Origin: Solirubrobacteraceae bacterium
GTDB taxonomy: Bacteria > Actinomycetota > Thermoleophilia > Solirubrobacterales > Solirubrobacteraceae
Length of the DNA stretch: 64,000 bases
Assembly (NCBI GenBank): GCA_035503075.1
Contig: DATJTT010000019.1
Span: 11,929-75,928 of the forward strand
Direction of reading: 5' to 3'
The notes under the pieces are model-generated. The model was not told the origin of the DNA, did not search any database, and saw only the letters and a list, made by a program, of their open reading frames with translations. Positions 3,115-63,220 of the stretch are shown here, piece after piece; the stretch's first letter is position 1, and each line of letters begins with the position of its first letter. A program made the position numbers and the translations under genes.

Positions 3115-3396
3115 GTGAGGCTGTACATCTGCTGGGGCACGTTTCCGACGGTCCGCCCCGGCGGGCACCCGTGTGCGAACGCCTACCACGCGCTCAAGGA
3201 TGCGGGATATGAGCCGGAGCTGATCAAGTCCTACGGCTTCGCGCCGCTGCCCGGCGTGTTCAACCGCACGCGCGGGCGCCGCGAGGTCCAGGAGCTGACC
3301 GGCAAGCGCTGGGTGCCGACGCTCGTCCTCGACGACGGCTCCGTGATCGACGACTCCCACGCGATCGTCGAGTGGGCGCGCGCGAACCCCGCGTGA
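3115..3396 (+). CDS. glutaredoxin / GST N-terminal (thioredoxin-fold) small protein
   Basis: HPCANA...[31 protein letters not shown], matching the VP..DS..I pattern of GST-N domains. Confidence 0.75.
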
Positions 3397-3551
3397 GCGT
3401 GGTCGTAGCCGCTGATGATCGGATCCTCATGACGCTCGGCGAGCATCCGCTCGGAGTCCTCGTCCGCGAACGCCGCCACGCGGCTGAGGGCTACCGCCAG
3501 AATCGCGCCGAAGAGCATCACGCCAAGCGCCGAGGCGACGATGATGGTCAC
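3231..3551 (-). CDS. hypothetical small membrane protein, antisense-overlapping the glutaredoxin gene
   Basis: Hydrophobic N-terminal helix [20 protein letters not shown]; purine-rich GGAGGAG upstream; 3' half antisense to 3115-3396. Confidence 0.4.
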
Positions 3552-3725
3552 GAATACGGCCCCCTTCCGCTCCTCCGATCGAGCTCTGGCGACGAGCCTC
3601 GCACACGGGCCGGATGGCGGTCCAGGCCGTTCGGACGAAGACCTCGCTAACTCCGTAGGTTTCTATACCGCGACCGCATGTCCTCCCTCCGTAACGCCCC
3701 AGAACCGACAGAAGGGAACACCCCA

Positions 3726-4490
3726 ATGAACATCCTGGCCAGGCTCGATCGGATCCGCGCCGCGATCGACGTGCTCGAGCACCCGTTCTATCGACGCTGG
3801 AGCGCCGGCGAGCTGAGCGCGCCCGAGCTCGACCGCTACGCCGGCGAGTACGGGCACGCGGTGCTGGCGCTCGCGGCCACCTCCGAGCGCGCCGCCGAGT
3901 GCGCGTCGATCGACGCCCGCACGAGCCCCGCGGCCGCCAGCAGCCGCGCGGGGCTCGCCGCCCATGCGCGCGAGGAGGCCGCCCACGTGGCGCTCTGGGA
4001 GCAGTTCGCGCGCTCGGTCGCCGAGCGCCGCGCGCGCGACGCGCACCACACGGAGGCGCGAGCGAGGGGCGTGCGCCAGACGGGCGCGCACCAGACGAGC
4101 GCGCCCGCGGGCGCCGGCCCGGTCCCCCTCGCGCGCACACGCACGTGCATCCGCGCGTGGGGCGCGGGCGAGGACCTGCTCGAGCACCTGGCCGTCCTGT
4201 ACGCGATCGAGGCCGGGCAGCCGCAGATCTCCGCGACCAAGCTCGCCGGGCTGCGCGCGCACTACGGCTTCACCGACGAGGGTCCCGCGACCGAGTACTT
4301 CCGCGTGCACCAGGTGCGCGACCTCGAGCACGCCGGCGCTGCGCGCGAGCTGATCGCGGCGCTGCTCGCCGAGCTCGACGACCCCGACGAGCAGGCGCAG
4401 CGGATGCTCGCGCGCGCCCGCGACGCGCTGTACGGCAACTGGCTGCTGCTCGACGGCGTCGAAGGCCGCGAGGCTCGCGCGAGCACCTGA
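3726..4490 (+). CDS. heme-oxygenase-like diiron enzyme, CADD/PqqC/TenA family
   Basis: LEHPFYRRWSAGEL, EEAAH, LYAIEAGQP..SATKLAGL, EYFRVHQVRDLEHA diiron ligand pattern. Confidence 0.82.
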   Translation: MNILARLDRIRAAIDVLEHPFYRRWSAGELSAPELDRYAGEYGHAVLALAATSERAAECASIDARTSPAAASSRAGLAAHAREEAAHVALWEQFARSVAERRARDAHHTEARARGVRQTGAHQTSAPAGAGPVPLARTRTCIRAWGAGEDLLEHLAVLYAIEAGQPQISATKLAGLRAHYGFTDEGPATEYFRVHQVRDLEHAGAARELIAALLAELDDPDEQAQRMLARARDALYGNWLLLDGVEGREARAST

Positions 4491-56352: not shown

Positions 56353-57795
56353 CTAGAGCAGCAGCGCCTTGACCTGCAGGAACTCCTCTAGGCCATAGCG
56401 GCCGAGCTCACGCCCGTAACCGGACTGCTTGTAGCCGCCGAATGGCGCCAGCGGGTTGAACGCTCCGCCGTTGATCTCGACCTGGCCCGTGCGGATGCGC
56501 CTGGCGACGCGCTTTGCGCGCTCGGCGTCCGCCGACCACACGCCGCCGGCGAGGCCGTAGAGCGAGTCGTTGGCGATCCGCACCGCGTCCTCTTCGTCCT
56601 CGTAGGGCATCAGCACGAGCACGGGGCCGAAGATCTCCTCCCTGGCGATCGTCATCTCGGGGGTGACCTCGGAGAACACGGTGGGAGCGACGAAGTAGCC
56701 GCGCTCGAGGCCGGCGGGCGCCTCGGCGCTGCCGGTGAGCAGCTTGGCGCCCTCGTCGAGGCCCTTGGCGATGTAGTCGCGAACGATCTTGCGCTGGCTC
56801 TCGGAGACGAGCGGCCCGAGCGTCGTGGAGGGCTCGAACGGGTCGCCGGGCTTGAAGTAGCCGGCGACCGCGGTCGCGATCTGCTCGGCCTCGGCCAGGC
56901 GCGCGCGCGGCACGAGCATGCGCGTGAGCGCGCTGCACGTCTGCCCGGAGTTCAGGAAGCACTTGGCGACGCCGTCCTTGATCGCCTGCTGGAGGTCGGC
57001 GTCGTCGAGGAGCACGTTCGCGGACTTGCCGCCGAGCTCGAGCGCGACCTTCTTGATCGTGCCGGCAGCCGCTTCGGCGACGCGCCTGCCGGCAACGGTG
57101 GAGCCGGTGAACGAGACCATGTCGACGCCGGGGTGCAGCGCGAGCGCCTCGCCCACCACCGAGCCGCGGCCGGTGACGAGGTTGAAGACGCCGGCGGGGA
57201 GCCCGACCGCGTCGATCACCTCGGCGAGCAGCGCAGCGTTCAGCGGCGCCACCTGCGAGGGCTTGAGCACGACCGTGCAGCCGGCGGCGAGCGCCGGCGC
57301 GACCTTCGCGGCGATCTGGTGGAGCGGGTAGTTCCACGGGGTGATCGCGGCGACCACGCCGATCGGCTCGCGCACGATCAGCGAGCTGCCGATCTGCTCC
57401 TCCCAGGCGAACTCCTCGAGCAGCTTGGGCATCGAGTTAAAGGTGGTCGTCGGCAGCCCCGCCTGGATCATCGCGGAGAGCTTCAGCGGCATCCCCACCT
57501 CCTGGGCGATCAGCGCGGCGATCTCCTCCGCTCGCGCGCCGAGCGCCTGGCCGATCTTGGCCATCCAGTCGGCGCGCTCGGAAAGCGGCGTCGCCGACCA
57601 GCTCTCGAAGGCCGAGCGCGCTGCCGCGACGGCGGCGTCGACGTCCTGCGTGGTCGCGTCGGCGACCGAGCCGATGACCTGCTCAGTGGTGGAGTTGATC
57701 ACCTCGATCATGCCGTCGCCACCGGCCTTCACCCACTCGCCGCCGATATAGATCTTCTCCCAGACATGAACTGCTTGCTCGGTCGCGGTCGCCAT
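56353..57795 (-). CDS. NAD(P)-dependent aldehyde dehydrogenase
   Basis: ITPWNYP, FTGST, LELGGKS, GQTC catalytic Cys, EEIFGPV. Confidence 0.95.
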
Positions 57796-57910: not shown

Positions 57911-59377
57911 TTAGTCCGCTGCGACTAGGACGGGCTGCGGCTCGGGAACGGTTCTGGTCACCGGGTCGGTGTTGTGCTCGTCTGCGCCGACGAGCGCGAA
58001 GATCACCGGGAGGGCGACCAGCGCGATCGCGCCGAGCACCCAGAATGCGTGCTGGAAGCCACCTGTGAGCGCCACGGGCAGCTTGTCGCCGGCGTGCAGC
58101 AGTACGTCGGTGTGGCTCGCCGCGACGCTCGAGGCGATCGCGATGCCGAGAGCGCCTCCGACCTGCTGGCTCGTGCTCAGGAGCCCGGACGCCAGCCCGG
58201 CCCGGTGTTCCTCGATGCCGGCGAGCGCGGCGATCGAGACCGGGATGAACGCGAACGCGGTCCCTGCGCCGGCGACGATGAACGGCCCGAGCAGGTTGCC
58301 GACGAAATGGCCGTGGACGGGTACTCGAGTCGCCCAGAGCACCCCCGCGCCGATCAGGGTCATCCCGACCGCCATTACCGGCTTGGGTCCGATGCGGGTA
58401 ACGAGCAGCTGGGAGACGCCGGCGAGCGCGAGCGACGTGAGGGACGCTGCCAGCCACGCGAGCCCGGCCTGCAGAGCGCTGAAGTGCAGCACCTGCTGCA
58501 TGTACAGGGTGCCGACGAATAGGAACGCGTAGAAGCTGCCGACGAGCAGCAGCGCTGCCGTGTTCGCGCCGGCGAGCGTGCGCAGCCGGAAGATCGAGAG
58601 CGGCAGGATCGGCCACTCGGCACTTTTCTCGATCGCGAGGAAGGAGACGAGCAGACCGACGGATCCCGCCAGGACCGCGATCGTCCGCGTGGCGCCCCAG
58701 CCGTACTGGGGTGCTTGGGAGATCGCGTCGACGAGCAGCACCAGTCCGCCCGTTCCGGTGATCGCACCGGCGGCGTCAAAGCGCCGGCGGACGGTGGTCA
58801 GGCGGCTCTCGGGGACGACCCGCGGCACCAGCGCGAGCGCGGCGGCCCCGATCGGGACGTTCAGGTAGAAGATGTACTGCCAGCCGGCGTAGCGGGTGAG
58901 GAGCCCGCCGGCGATCAGCCCGACGGTCGCGCCGGCCGCGGCGAGCCCGCCCCAGATCCCGAGTGCCTTGTTGCGCTCGGCGCCCTCCCGGAACATGTTC
59001 ATCACGATCGACAGGGCGGCGGGCAGCATGATCGCCGCACCGACTCCTTGGACGGCGCGGGTCGCGATCAGCAAGCCCGCGCTGGCCGCGAGCCCGCAGG
59101 CCAGCGACGCGGCCGTGAACAGGCCGAGCCCCACCATCAGGACGCGCCGGCGGCCGAGCAGATCGGCGGCGCGGCCACCCAACAGCAGCAGGCCACCGAA
59201 CGTGAGCGCGTACGCGGTCGCGACCCACTGCAGGTTGGTCTGGGTGAAATGCAGATCGCGGGCGATCGTCGGCAGCGAGACGTTGACGATCGTCAGGTCG
59301 ATGATCGTCATGAAGTACGCGACGGCCAGCAGCGCGAACGCGCGCCAGCGGTTGATGGGTGGTGCGGCGGGAGTCAT
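57911..59377 (-). CDS. DHA2 MFS efflux transporter
   Basis: [31 protein letters not shown]. Confidence 0.92.
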
Positions 59378-59426
59378 CCGCGAGCTCCTTAGTCGGTGGG
59401 TTGCCGTTACTTCCTCGTCGTCAATG

Positions 59427-59456
59427 GAGATACGAGGAGGAGCCGAAATCCATCGC
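59427..59456 (-). promoter_or_regulatory. bipartite ECF-type promoter motif, copy A
   Basis: Minus strand GCGATGGATT-N10-CTCGTATCTC, 50 bp upstream of the MFS start. Confidence 0.7.
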
Positions 59457-59602
59457 TCGCCCGAGCATCGCGCCGCCGAGCGCTTGGAGGCGAGCCCGTC
59501 CGCGCGCTACGCGCGCGCGGGAAGCCCGAACCGCTCGCGCGTCGCCGCCCTGCCCGTGAGCGGCTCCGGGCTTCAACGGCCCGAGCAAGCTCCGATGTTC
59601 GA

Positions 59603-60010
59603 TTAACGGCCCGGTCGTTCGGGCTCGAGCGTGCGCTTGATGACGCCCAACGCGTGCTCCATCAGAGGCGCCGCGCGACCGACGAGCTCGCTCGGGAGAA
59701 AATCGGCGATCCACACGAACCGGCTGCGGTCTGCTCCGTCCGCGAGCACCTGAGCCGATGCGTTGTGATGGGTGTAAGGCTCCTCGACGACCGACCACAC
59801 GAGCCGGCGCGCGTCATCGTCGAGGTCGACCAATCGCTCGCGCAGCACGTTGCCGTTGAAGAACGTGACGATCCGGTCCTCACCGTCCAGTCGGGCATCG
59901 GTCGCGAAACCGGGCACGAGCCGCACATGCAACCCTCCCCAGTCGCGCAGCGCGTCCCAGACTCGCTCCGCACTCGCGTCGATCGCGATCTCCTTGCGAA
60001 TCGAAGCCAT
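59603..60010 (-). CDS. SRPBCC (START/polyketide-cyclase-like) protein
   Basis: MASIRKEI.IDASAERVWDALRD, RIVTF..G..LRER. Confidence 0.88.
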   Translation of the reverse strand: MASIRKEIAIDASAERVWDALRDWGGLHVRLVPGFATDARLDGEDRIVTFFNGNVLRERLVDLDDDARRLVWSVVEEPYTHHNASAQVLADGADRSRFVWIADFLPSELVGRAAPLMEHALGVIKRTLEPERPGR

Positions 60011-60017
60011 CGCGAGA

Positions 60018-61028
60018 TTATGCCTGGCGAGGCAGCCCGAACGACTCGACCAGCGACGGCGTGCGGAAGTGGATGATCTCCTCGATTCGCTGCGCCTCGA
60101 GGGTGAGGACGGTTACGCCGTGTGGGGCGTAGACGCCGGAGCTGTCGAGCTCGTATGCGCCGACTGCCAGCTGACCGTTGGCTGCGACGGGCAGCATCCG
60201 CCAACTGCGCGCGCCGTCGAACACCGCGCTGCGCAGCACCATCTCGATCGCTTCGCGCCCGTGATACCAGCTCGGGATCGGGGGCATCGCGAGCGTCGCG
60301 GTGTCGGTGAGCATGCCGACGATCGTGTCGACGTCGTTGCGTGCCCAGGCTTCGACATAGCGTGCGACGATCGCTTTCAGCTGCTCGTCGCCAAGTGAGT
60401 GGAGCGTCGCCTGCTGGCTGCGGTCCGGCCGTCGCTCGTCCAGGGTCGCGTGCGCGCGCTGCAGGGCGCTGTAGACCGAGGCCGGCGTCGTCTCGAGCGC
60501 CTCGGCGACCTCCGCACCGGAGAAGCCGAGAACGTCGCGGAGGATGAGCACCGCCCGCTGCCGAGGCGGCAGCAGCTGGAGCGCGGCGATGAACGCGAGC
60601 TCGATGCTCTCTCGCTGCTCGTAGCGGGCTTCCGGGCCGGCGAGGCCGTCGTCGAGGCCGAGTTGCTCGTCGGGATACGGGTCCATCCACACGGACTCCA
60701 GCAGCGGCGCTCGGATCGGGGCGTGTGGATCGGAGGGTGGGCCATAGTCGAGCGGCAGCACACGCGCAGGCCTGCGCTCGATCGCGCGCAGGCAAACGTT
60801 CGTGGCGATCGAATACAGCCAGCTTCGCAGCGAGCTTCGCCCCTGAAACGACGACAGGCTCCGCCAGGCGCGCAGCAGCGTCTCCTGCACCGCGTCCTCG
60901 GCGTCCTGCAGGGAGCCGAGCATCCGGTAGCAGTGCGCGTGCAGCGCCCGCCGGTGCGGCCCCGCCAGCTCGGCGAACGCTGCGTGATCCCGTCCGATAG
61001 CTGCCTCGATGAGCTGGGAGTCGGTCAT
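60018..61028 (-). CDS. sigG: ECF sigma factor with C-terminal SnoaL-like domain (SigG-like)
   Basis: LHAHCYRMLGS.QDAEDAVQETLLRAWR, LPPRQRAVLILRDVLG, MPP.P.WY.GR, AANGQ. Confidence 0.85.
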   Translation of the reverse strand: MTDSQLIEAAIGRDHAAFAELAGPHRRALHAHCYRMLGSLQDAEDAVQETLLRAWRSLSSFQGRSSLRSWLYSIATNVCLRAIERRPARVLPLDYGPPSDPHAPIRAPLLESVWMDPYPDEQLGLDDGLAGPEARYEQRESIELAFIAALQLLPPRQRAVLILRDVLGFSGAEVAEALETTPASVYSALQRAHATLDERRPDRSQQATLHSLGDEQLKAIVARYVEAWARNDVDTIVGMLTDTATLAMPPIPSWYHGREAIEMVLRSAVFDGARSWRMLPVAANGQLAVGAYELDSSGVYAPHGVTVLTLEAQRIEEIIHFRTPSLVESFGLPRQA

Positions 61029-61432
61029 CCTGTCCCTCGTACGAGGGTACCCTTCGGCTGCCAGAGCGCGATCTCGCCGCCGTCGCTGCTGGCCAGCACG
61101 CTGCGCCATCCCGCCGGTCCCTCGCGGGGCGCGAGCAGCACCGCTGCTCCAAGCGCCCGCCCGCGCTCGGTCATCGCCTCGATCTCTGGCACCTCCACAT
61201 ACGGAAGCCAGATCGGCCGCCGCGCACCGCACTCGACGATCCCGCCATCGAGTGCGCCGCCAAGGGCCAGCGCGTGATAGGTGCCCGACCGACCGTGCAG
61301 TCGCTCTGTCCGCCAACCGAGCAGCTCGCGATAGAACGTGCTCGCGCCCGATAGGTCGTGAGTGTGCAGCTCGAGATGCACGAGCTCGCCTGCTCGCTTA
61401 TCGCGTGTGTCGCTGGGTTGAAAATCCGTCAT
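61025..61432 (-). CDS. VOC/glyoxalase family protein
   Basis: VHLELHT.DL..A..FY.ELLGW, WLPYVEV, GGEIALWQ; native start may be altered by the IS end. Confidence 0.8.
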   Translation of the reverse strand: MTDFQPSDTRDKRAGELVHLELHTHDLSGASTFYRELLGWRTERLHGRSGTYHALALGGALDGGIVECGARRPIWLPYVEVPEIEAMTERGRALGAAVLLAPREGPAGWRSVLASSDGGEIALWQPKGTLVRGTG

Positions 61433-61610
61433 GCGGGTTGGGGTTGGGGTTCGAGGGTGATGTTGTGGCCGAGCCGTTCGAGTTGGGTGATGAGCCGGCG
61501 GCGGTAGCGTTCGGTGTGCTCGGTTTGGCGGCGGATGAAGTACTCCTCGCCGAGGTCGTGGTAGGGGATGTCTTCGGTGAGCATGTGCCAGGCGGCGATG
61601 AGGATGGAAC
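61415..61610 (-). mobile_element. IS110-family transposase C-terminal remnant with presumed right end
   Basis: ILIAAWHML....PYHDLGEEYF.RR......RRLITQLERLGHNITLEP, typical IS110 C-terminus; catalytic part absent. Confidence 0.78.
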
Positions 61611-61660
61611 AACCATTTTCATCCGACCACGGTGGGCCGTCAAGCACGGGCCATATTTAC

Positions 61661-62239
61661 TCATCGGCGGACGACCTCATAGTTGACGAACGCGAGGTCC
61701 TCGCCGATGGTGCCCGCGTCGAGGAGCCGCAAGGGCGTCTTCTCGCTGATCTCGTCGAAGAGGCGATCGCCGCCTCCGAGCACCACCGGGAAGACCGTCA
61801 GCCGCAGCTCGTCGACCAGATCGTGGTTGATCAGCGTGCGCACGAGCTGACGGCTCGCGTAGACGACGATCTCCCCGTCCAGCTGCTGCTTCAGCTTGGA
61901 GATCTCGCTAACCACATCGCCACTGATGACCGTCGAGTTCTTCCAGTCTGGACCTGTGAGAGGGGTCGAGGACACGACGTACTTGGGCAGGTCTCTCAAC
62001 CTGTCCGCCCACTCGCCAGGACGGGATGGCCAGCGTGCGGCGAAATACTCATAGCTGCGCCGACCGAACAGCAGGGCCTCGGCACGCAGCGCCTCCTGGA
62101 ACGCGACCTTTCCCCACGCTTCGAGGTCGTTGCCGCCGAACTCGTCGAACCAGCCGCCGTGCCGGGAGCCCTCCTGACCGGTCGGGTCTTGGACCACTCC
62201 GTCGAGCGAGACGTTCTCACTGATGACGATCGTTCCCAT
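61661..62239 (-). CDS. dihydrofolate reductase / RibD C-terminal family protein
   Basis: SENVSLDGVVQ, LLFGRRSYE, PKYVVSS, LVDELRL.VFPVVLGGG..LF. Confidence 0.9.
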   Translation of the reverse strand: MGTIVISENVSLDGVVQDPTGQEGSRHGGWFDEFGGNDLEAWGKVAFQEALRAEALLFGRRSYEYFAARWPSRPGEWADRLRDLPKYVVSSTPLTGPDWKNSTVISGDVVSEISKLKQQLDGEIVVYASRQLVRTLINHDLVDELRLTVFPVVLGGGDRLFDEISEKTPLRLLDAGTIGEDLAFVNYEVVRR

Positions 62240-62283
62240 CTCCGTTCTCCTTACTTGTGTCTCCGGTTGGAGCGTTTCCCATT

Positions 62284-62313
62284 GAGATACGAGTGGGCGG
62301 CGAAATCCATCGC
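62284..62313 (-). promoter_or_regulatory. bipartite ECF-type promoter motif, copy B
   Basis: Minus strand GCGATGGATT-TCGCCGCCCA-CTCGTATCTC. Confidence 0.7.
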
Positions 62314-62360
62314 TCACCGCTAGCGCATCGGCAACGCGGACGCCAACTTTTTCGTGCGCA

Positions 62361-62390
62361 GCGATGGATTCGCGTGTCCGCTCGTATCTC
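62361..62390 (+). promoter_or_regulatory. bipartite ECF-type promoter motif, copy C
   Basis: Plus strand GCGATGGATT-CGCGTGTCCG-CTCGTATCTC. Confidence 0.7.
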
Positions 62391-62445
62391 TGTTCTCGAA
62401 AGGGCGATCCAGATCGTCGAACACACGAGCTCTAAGGAGCACCAC

Positions 62446-63171
62446 ATGACAATCGCTGAGAAGACAATCCTGGTGACCGGGGCCAACCGCGGCATCGGCG
62501 GGGCGCTGGTCGAGGAGGCGTTGGAGCGGGGCGCAAGCCGGGTGTATGCGGGGACGCGCCAGCCGATCGTGCACGCCGACCGGCGCGTCACGCCCGTGAT
62601 GCTGGACGTGACCGATCCTGAGCAGATCCGGGCGGCGGTCGAGCAGGTGCAGTCGCTGGACGTCCTCATCAACAACGCCGGCATCTCGCTGCCCGATGAT
62701 CTCAGCGACCGTGCCGCGTTCGAAGCCCACCTCGCCGTAAACCTGTACGGCACATATGGCGTAACCAACGCATTCGTGCCGCTGCTCAGCGAGGCTCGCG
62801 GCGCGCTCGTCAACGTCGTGTCGCTGGGGGCGTTCGCCGCGGTGCCCGTGCTTCCGGCCTACTCGGCCTCGAAGGCGGCCGAGTTCTCGCTGACGCAGTC
62901 GCTGCGCGCGCTCCTGGCGGGACGGGGCGTGAGCGTGCACGCGGTCATGCCCGGCCCTGTTGACACCGACATGGTGCGCTTCCTTGAGATCCCGAAGAGC
63001 CCTCCGCGGTCCGTCGCCGCCGCTATCTTCGACGGCGTGGAGAACGGGGAGGAGGAGATCTTCCCCGACCCCATGTCGGCGTCGATGGCCGGCGCCTGGC
63101 GCAATGGCTTCGCGAAGGCGTTCGAGCGCCAGAACGCGGCGCTGCTGGCGGCGGAGCCCGTCGCGGCATGA
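62446..63171 (+). CDS. short-chain dehydrogenase/reductase (SDR)
   Basis: TGANRGIG, INNAG, YSASK; AAGGAG upstream of ATG 62446. Confidence 0.92.
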   Translation: MTIAEKTILVTGANRGIGGALVEEALERGASRVYAGTRQPIVHADRRVTPVMLDVTDPEQIRAAVEQVQSLDVLINNAGISLPDDLSDRAAFEAHLAVNLYGTYGVTNAFVPLLSEARGALVNVVSLGAFAAVPVLPAYSASKAAEFSLTQSLRALLAGRGVSVHAVMPGPVDTDMVRFLEIPKSPPRSVAAAIFDGVENGEEEIFPDPMSASMAGAWRNGFAKAFERQNAALLAAEPVAA

Positions 63172-63176
63172 GAAAG

Positions 63177-63220
63177 GGCTCACGCCACCGGTCTGCCGCC
63201 TGAGATCGGTGGCGTGAGCC
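63177..63220 (+). terminator. 18-bp stem-loop after the SDR
   Basis: GGCTCACGCCACCGGTCT / AGATCGGTGGCGTGAGCC with one GU pair. Confidence 0.7.

Follow-up and report, generated by a model that had tools for sequence, protein, structure and literature searches.

Sigma factors of the ECF56 (SigG) type, a group of extracytoplasmic function (ECF) sigma factors, occur widely in Actinobacteria, including Mycobacterium tuberculosis. In M. tuberculosis, the SigG-dependent genes Rv0887c and Rv0911 share the promoter CGATGA(N18)GTCNNTA, and the start site was mapped by 5' rapid amplification of cDNA ends (PMC3776920). In Streptomyces venezuelae, a truncated ECF56 sigma factor induces ten genes that have CGATGAGTT-N14-GGTC in common, among them glyoxalase, DHFR-like, and deaminase-reductase genes (bioRxiv 10.1101/2020.01.30.927608). 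When tested in E. coli, promoters of this kind are activated by the ECF56 sigma factor of M. tuberculosis and by that of Conexibacter woesei, and the family has a conserved MPP(F/Y/L) motif after sigma-4 (bioRxiv 10.1101/2020.01.30.927608). Here, a locus of this kind is described in an uncultured member of the Solirubrobacterales (Solirubrobacteraceae bacterium, GCA_035503075.1, genome G000), on a stretch of 64,000 nt from contig DATJTT010000019.1 (contig C19), referred to below as the window. Three copies of a bipartite 30-bp motif in the window are very probably promoters, of a lineage-specific variant form, for the ECF56-type (SigG-like) sigma factor encoded next to them. The locus is a known kind of circuit, consisting of an ECF56/SigG sigma factor, its promoters, and a regulon of small enzymes, and not a new kind of system. 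What appears to be new is the lineage-specific promoter variant with matching changes in sigma residues, beside a canonical paralog in the same genome.

Three copies of a probable variant ECF56 promoter

The motif reads GCGATGGATT-N10-CTCGTATCTC. All three copies reported in a first-pass annotation of the window were recovered without a mismatch (Table 1), whereas dinucleotide-preserving shuffles give an expectation of 0.01 matches by chance, even with three mismatches allowed. The annotation counted 20 of 30 positions as identical in all copies. These 20 fixed positions hold, and one identical column in the spacer raises the count to 21 of 30; an A immediately 5' of the motif is also common to all three. 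Every copy is intergenic and oriented toward a gene start, with the start codon 44-55 nt downstream (MFS, ATG 59377, 49 nt; RibD_C, ATG 62239, 44 nt; SDR, ATG 62446, 55 nt).

No further site with up to three mismatches is present elsewhere in the assembly (3.63 Mb, 69 contigs, 70.7% G+C, 92.9% complete), a metagenome-assembled genome. Genome-wide scans allowing four to six mismatches returned scattered, mostly unconvincing matches and were replaced by a position weight matrix (PWM) trained on 40 sites that all came from related genomes and none from the window. Across the 7.26 million positions of the assembly, only the three window sites score 44-49 bits, and everything else scores 14 bits or less; the PWM scan that the first-pass annotation had proposed thus leaves them as the sole strong matches. 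Exact sites are confined to the homologous sigma locus in four related genomes as well. Thus, the regulon appears to be local, comprising this 5.3-kb locus with three promoters and five to seven genes.

Written in the same way as the published SigG/ECF56 promoter, the window motif is CGATGGATT-N14-TATCT, and the spacing of the two is identical. Within the -35 block, GA replaces the canonical AG, and the TC of the -10 core is preceded by TA instead of GG. Each of the three sites conforms to CGATG[AG][AG]TT-N14-[GT][GA]TCT with no mismatch. However, they deviate from the exact consensus, with four mismatches to the 13-base S. venezuelae consensus (two in the -35 block and two in GGTC) and two mismatches to the 9-base M. 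tuberculosis consensus, and are therefore classified as variant. The comparison with ECF56 motifs suggested in the first-pass annotation hence identifies the window motif as a variant of the published promoter with identical spacing. When the literature was searched for the variant string CGATGGATT, no relevant paper came up. The motif CCG/CCCTCC of S. tsukubaensis SigG1 was also considered; it bears no resemblance to the window motif and was not used.

The first-pass annotation had taken CGT as the -10 core. This assignment does not stand, because sister sites read CGGATC; canonical sites read C-GGTC, and only [A/G]TC is conserved. The core is ATC, the equivalent of GTC. On sigma-H numbering, the expected start sites lie about 7 nt beyond the 30-mers, near 59420 (-), 62277 (-), and 62397 (+), which would give leaders of roughly 43 nt (MFS), 38 nt (RibD_C), and 49 nt (SDR).

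Conservation in related genomes

Homologues of the sigma factor were gathered from 60 relatives and 80 further public loci. At the loci of the more distant homologues, canonical CGATGAGTT-N14-(G)GTCT sites immediately precede the sigma gene (at about -74 nt), and others precede a divergent VOC gene as well as RibD_C, MFS, DUF899, and additional VOC genes. The form at the closer homologues (57-92% identity) is CGATGGAT[TC]-N14-[TG][AG]TCT; sites of this variant form, about 40 of them in about 20 genomes, lie in front of orthologues of RibD_C, SDR, MFS, and VOC. Each window promoter has orthologous counterparts before the same gene. These precede MFS genes in L083, L084, L086, and L144 (P_MFS), RibD_C genes in G014, G028, L081, L082, L084-L086, L088, L089, and L144 (P_ribD), and SDR genes in G014, L081, L082, L084, L085, and L144 (P_SDR). 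RibD_C and VOC, behind P_ribD, belong to the recurrent target classes of the family (DHFR-like and glyoxalase/VOC), and MFS and DUF899 genes are targets in related loci. Together with architecture and spacing, these comparisons support the proposal of the first-pass annotation that the motif is the target promoter of the adjacent sigma factor.

The two blocks are invariant in about 20 genomes, while spacers and flanks drift and neighbouring coding DNA is 74-76% identical. Invariant blocks amid diverged DNA constitute a phylogenetic footprint, which speaks against an artefact of recent duplication. It is thus hardly credible that the copies are recent duplications of one segment without selected function. 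The complete identity of the blocks within the window would fit such an origin, and the combination of promoter and leader is found again, before unrelated genes, in G014 and L084, so segmental copying does occur. However, the spacers differ at nine of ten positions between the window copies, in addition to the footprint.

An operator for a conventional DNA-binding regulator could also consist of two conserved 10-bp blocks one helical turn apart, an arrangement that could bind a dimer. Yet the blocks form neither a palindrome nor a direct repeat, and every copy faces a gene start at the short distance given above. The conserved locus lacks a transcription-factor gene, and architecture and spacing equal those of a promoter with a mapped start site. 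With the sigma factor as the one regulator tested, the motif is therefore highly improbable as an operator, and a promoter function is preferred.

Co-variation of sigma residues and promoter bases

The sigma factors of the variant subclade differ from canonical members in both DNA-reading regions. The sigma-4 recognition helix reads SVYSALQRAH and the sigma-2 segment ATNvCLR, whereas the canonical sequences are SVNSALQRAR and ATNtCLD. At 24 distinct loci with SVYSALQRAH and CLR, 36 of the 37 exact-core sites are of the GA type, and in 30 of these 36 the base that aligns with the G of GTC is A. The 59 loci with SVNSALQRAR and CLD have 26 AG sites, ten with other dinucleotides, and only two with GA. 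The 22 sigma factors with the altered helix, among 57 in the tree, are set apart from all others by a single branch (SH-aLRT 87), and the canonical clade that is their sister group includes the second paralog of G000.

The structure of M. tuberculosis sigma-H provides a framework for these differences. Specificity at -31/-30 is set by M181 in the open complex of sigma-H, where N92 hydrogen-bonds the -11 base pair (PMC6411747). In the same complex, R186 reads G-34, S182 reads G-33, and R188 contacts the backbone. An ungapped alignment of the window sigma factor to sigma-H pairs Y186 with M181, S187 with S182, R191 with R186, H193 with R188, N77 with N88, and R81 with N92. With ATC placed as the equivalent of GTC/GTT at -11 to -9, the promoter differences fall at about -30/-29 (AG to GA) and -11 (G to A). 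The differing bases thus appear to sit where the differing residues read, and the residues for the unchanged G-34 are conserved. R81, Y186, and H193 are the candidate specificity residues.

The genome of the window encodes exactly two sigma factors at the level of TIGR02960. The second (contig C51, gene 3277-4389; locus L061, C51:1639-4973) is 57% identical to the first and has the canonical residues. Its locus contains five canonical CGATGAGTT-N14-GGTC-type sites. These lie in front of the sigma gene and also of two VOC genes, a PNPOx-like gene, and an open reading frame (ORF) without a Pfam match. No canonical site is found at the window locus and no variant site at C51, a distribution that suggests two insulated mini-regulons in one genome. 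Other genomes with a variant-type sigma factor, such as G018 and G055, also have canonical-type paralogs. A broader reading is that an ECF56 subclade of the Solirubrobacterales has re-tuned its specificity by N to Y at the M181 equivalent, R to H three turns further along, and, at the N92 equivalent, D to R, with the promoter changing in step, to give a naturally orthogonal pair. The chances that this broader reading is right or wrong are judged to be even.

Several points weigh against the reading of the sites as insulated promoters of the adjacent sigma factor. The co-variation arose once on the tree and is therefore one evolutionary event, not statistical proof. The remaining six of the 36 GA sites at variant-clade loci use G at -11, so R81 does not strictly demand A at this position. 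Variant-clade loci sometimes have GGTCT at -10, and locus L080 has both site types nearby. The assembly is incomplete, and further sites could therefore lie in unassembled DNA. An IS110 remnant, described below, separates RibD_C from the VOC and sigma genes, and feedback through P_ribD may be weakened or replaced. Finally, homology and comparative genomics underlie what is proposed on the dependence on the sigma factor, the start sites, the signal, the insulation, and the physiological role, and the sequencing runs found for 59300-62500 are DNA metagenomes from wetland and soil, with no RNA run among them.

Alternatively, the sites could be of the ECF56 type but not private, with the canonical C51 paralog reading them too, or instead, and the differences reflecting drift in a tolerant consensus. 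Ten of 13 informative positions equal the canonical motif, and published ECF56 sigma factors of distant phyla cross-activate canonical promoters. However, recognition of both elements by ECF sigma factors is reported to be stringent, and in G000 each of the two site types occurs strictly at its own sigma locus. The near-exclusive use of GA at variant loci, and its rarity at canonical loci, also argues against drift, as does the alignment of the differing bases with the positions read by the M181 and N92 equivalents. Cross-recognition of the window sites by the canonical paralog is accordingly considered unlikely.

The sigma factor and the genes of the locus

The sigma factor has Sigma70_r2 at residues 24-86 and Sigma70_r4_2 at residues 145-192, and region 3 is absent according to Pfam. 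Its SnoaL_2 tail matches PF12680 at residues 221-317 (35.9 bits, cut-off 27). Two family hidden Markov models are passed, NF006089 with 415.4 bits (cut-off 240) and TIGR02960 with 355.2 bits (cut-off 264.75), whereas the SigJ/ECF41 model NF007214 gives 93.6 bits, below its cut-off of 271. The sequence MPPI occupies residues 248-251. MPP is invariant in all aligned homologues, and the fourth residue is I versus F/Y/L in the published motif. The identities that the first-pass annotation gave to the MFS, SRPBCC, SnoaL-tailed sigma, VOC, RibD_C, and SDR genes agree with Pfam (Table 1). A detoxification role of the regulon, as of those of the family at large, is a plausible hypothesis.

Table 1. 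Promoters, genes, and remnant at the ECF56-type locus, in window positions.
Feature	Position	Strand	Remarks
P_MFS, variant ECF56-type promoter	59427..59456	-	-35 CGATGGATT, -10 region CGTATCT; exact match, PWM 49.0 bits
P_ribD, variant ECF56-type promoter	62284..62313	-	Exact match, PWM 48.4 bits
P_SDR, variant ECF56-type promoter, divergent from P_ribD	62361..62390	+	Exact match, PWM 44.2 bits
MFS transporter, 488 aa, behind P_MFS	57911..59377	-	Pfam MFS_1, E 4.5e-61
SRPBCC (Polyketide_cyc2) gene	59603..60010	-	Pfam PF10604
ECF56-type sigma factor, 336 aa	60018..61028	-	Pfam PF04542, PF08281, PF12680 (SnoaL_2 tail)
VOC/glyoxalase-like gene	61025..61432	-	Pfam Glyoxalase_6, Ble-like_N
Remnant, 3' end of IS110-family transposase gene	61415..61660	-	Absent in G014, L081, L085, L144
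RibD_C (DHFR-like reductase), first gene behind P_ribD	61661..62239	-	Pfam PF01872, E 7e-21
SDR oxidoreductase, behind P_SDR	62446..63171	+	Pfam adh_short, E 8e-39
DUF899 gene	from 63261	+	3' of SDR gene

The orthologous locus of G029 (contig C8; L065, L090) has a different appearance. The sigma match is interrupted near residue 284, the VOC and RibD_C genes and the 5' part of the MFS gene are missing, and there is no motif within 4 kb. Alone among the orthologues, this one seems to be decaying, with sequencing error as the alternative.

Predicted autoregulation and operon structure

The stop codon of the VOC gene overlaps the start codon of the sigma gene (ATGA), which implies translational coupling. 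The SRPBCC gene begins 7 nt past the sigma stop codon and is therefore taken to be co-transcribed; it is syntenic in G014, G028, L081, L084, L086, and L144. No site lies directly before the VOC-sigma pair in the window, so autoregulation must run through the RibD_C promoter. In the relatives L082, L089, and L093-L095, a fourth site is located immediately 5' of VOC-sigma. In G014, L081, L084, L085, and L144, the RibD_C stop abuts the VOC start, and RibD_C-VOC-sigma-SRPBCC therefore forms one operon behind P_ribD. The window is of this RibD_C-VOC operon type, but with a 245-nt insertion between the two genes. P_ribD would drive RibD_C and probably also the VOC-sigma-SRPBCC run.

The insertion corresponds to the IS110 remnant. 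A 56-aa frame within it matches the C-termini of annotated plasmid IS110 transposases (tblastn, E down to 5e-10) and has no Pfam match, and the genome contains no second copy of the remnant. It includes a sigma-70-like sequence, TTGACG-17-GAAAAT, at 61643..61615 (-), which could now drive VOC-sigma-SRPBCC. With regard to the autoregulation mentioned in the first-pass annotation, the sigma gene lies downstream of a promoter of its own type through P_ribD, but no direct site precedes VOC-sigma and the remnant intervenes.

Predicted transcript ends and leaders

On the forward strand, a hairpin at 63177..63220 lies between the SDR stop and the DUF899 start, so DUF899 may be outside the SDR transcript. 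It has an 18-bp perfect stem, an 8-nt loop, and no T-run, with a folding energy of -45 kcal/mol (z -4.5; 0 of 200 shuffles as good). It is probably a site where the SDR transcript ends or is attenuated, or else an element that stabilises the RNA. The 152-nt stretch between SRPBCC and P_MFS folds no better than shuffles (z -0.8), and no terminator is therefore claimed there. A simple terminator scan yielded nothing useful. On the reverse strand, 115 nt beyond the MFS gene, is an aldehyde dehydrogenase gene (56356-57795). Because relatives do not keep it in synteny with the sigma locus, it is probably outside the regulon.

Two leaders have features of their own. The leader of about 45 nt after P_MFS (..GACAACGAGGAAGTACCGGCAACCCACCGACCAAGGAG..; 59378-59426, L062:7857-7915, and near 2893-2940 in L084) is conserved across genomes. 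In G014 it accompanies the promoter before an AHSA1/SRPBCC gene, and in L084 before another ORF, which suggests that the P_MFS promoter and leader are a reusable cassette. The SDR leader contains a conserved palindrome at 62405-62416, CGATC-CA-GATCG (GGCGATC-CCCA-GATCGCC in G014), which could be an RNA hairpin or the operator of a second regulator.

Proposed mechanism

By analogy with characterised members, the SnoaL_2 tail would keep the sigma factor in check until a signal arrives. The freed sigma factor would then direct RNA polymerase to P_ribD, for expression of RibD_C and then probably of VOC-sigma-SRPBCC, resulting in positive feedback. It would likewise direct the polymerase to P_SDR, for the SDR gene, and to P_MFS, for an efflux-type transporter. 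The GA at about -30/-29 and the A at about -11 would be matched by Y186 and H193 in the recognition helix and by R81 in sigma-2. The altered promoter and residues would probably insulate the locus from the canonical C51 paralog.

Comparison with known systems

The locus resembles the M. tuberculosis SigG system (Rv0182c; Gaudion et al., 2013, PMC3776920) in its CGATGA(N18)GTC-type architecture, its glyoxalase-type targets, and the co-transcription of the sigma gene with small enzyme genes. The M. tuberculosis leaders are 52 and 40 nt long (PMC3776920), compared with the 38-49 nt predicted in the window. Unlike the M. tuberculosis promoters, the window sites read CGATGG(N18)ATC. In addition, sigG of M. 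tuberculosis is expressed mainly from a DNA-damage (RecA_NDp) promoter and is not clearly autoregulated, whereas the window sigma gene lies downstream of its own promoter type.

The changes at the -31/-30 reader and the -11 contact are like those of engineered or natural orthogonal ECF pairs, with M181-type residues of sigma-H/sigma-R (Li et al., 2019, PMC6411747). Unlike those pairs, the window change lies between two paralogs of one ECF group in one genome and is read from alignment only. It bears on how paralogous ECF sigma factors avoid cross-talk and may be a source of orthogonal sigma/promoter parts. If the re-tuning is real, it would provide a simple rule for reprogramming the ECF56 sigma family.

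The S. venezuelae SVEN_4562 system (Thompson et al., 2020) shares with the window a CGATG..TT -35 block, a 14-nt spacer, and an xxTC -10 core. It also shares glyoxalase/VOC and DHFR-like (RibD_C) targets and the lack of an obvious anti-sigma gene. The same study treats Cwoe_2709 of Conexibacter woesei, which belongs to the same order as the window genome. The systems differ in the -35 sequence (GGATT in the window versus the consensus GAGTT), in the -10 sequence (TATC(T) versus GGTC), and in scope, as the window regulon consists of three promoters in one locus. The locus is a clean example in which the entire regulon is found in one place. Thompson et al. (2020) stress exact nucleotide conservation across Actinobacteria, from which the window subclade departs (sigma N to Y, R to H, and D to R). 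A promoter called invariant across the phylum therefore has a co-evolved variant, and the residue-base pairs that may set its specificity are indicated.

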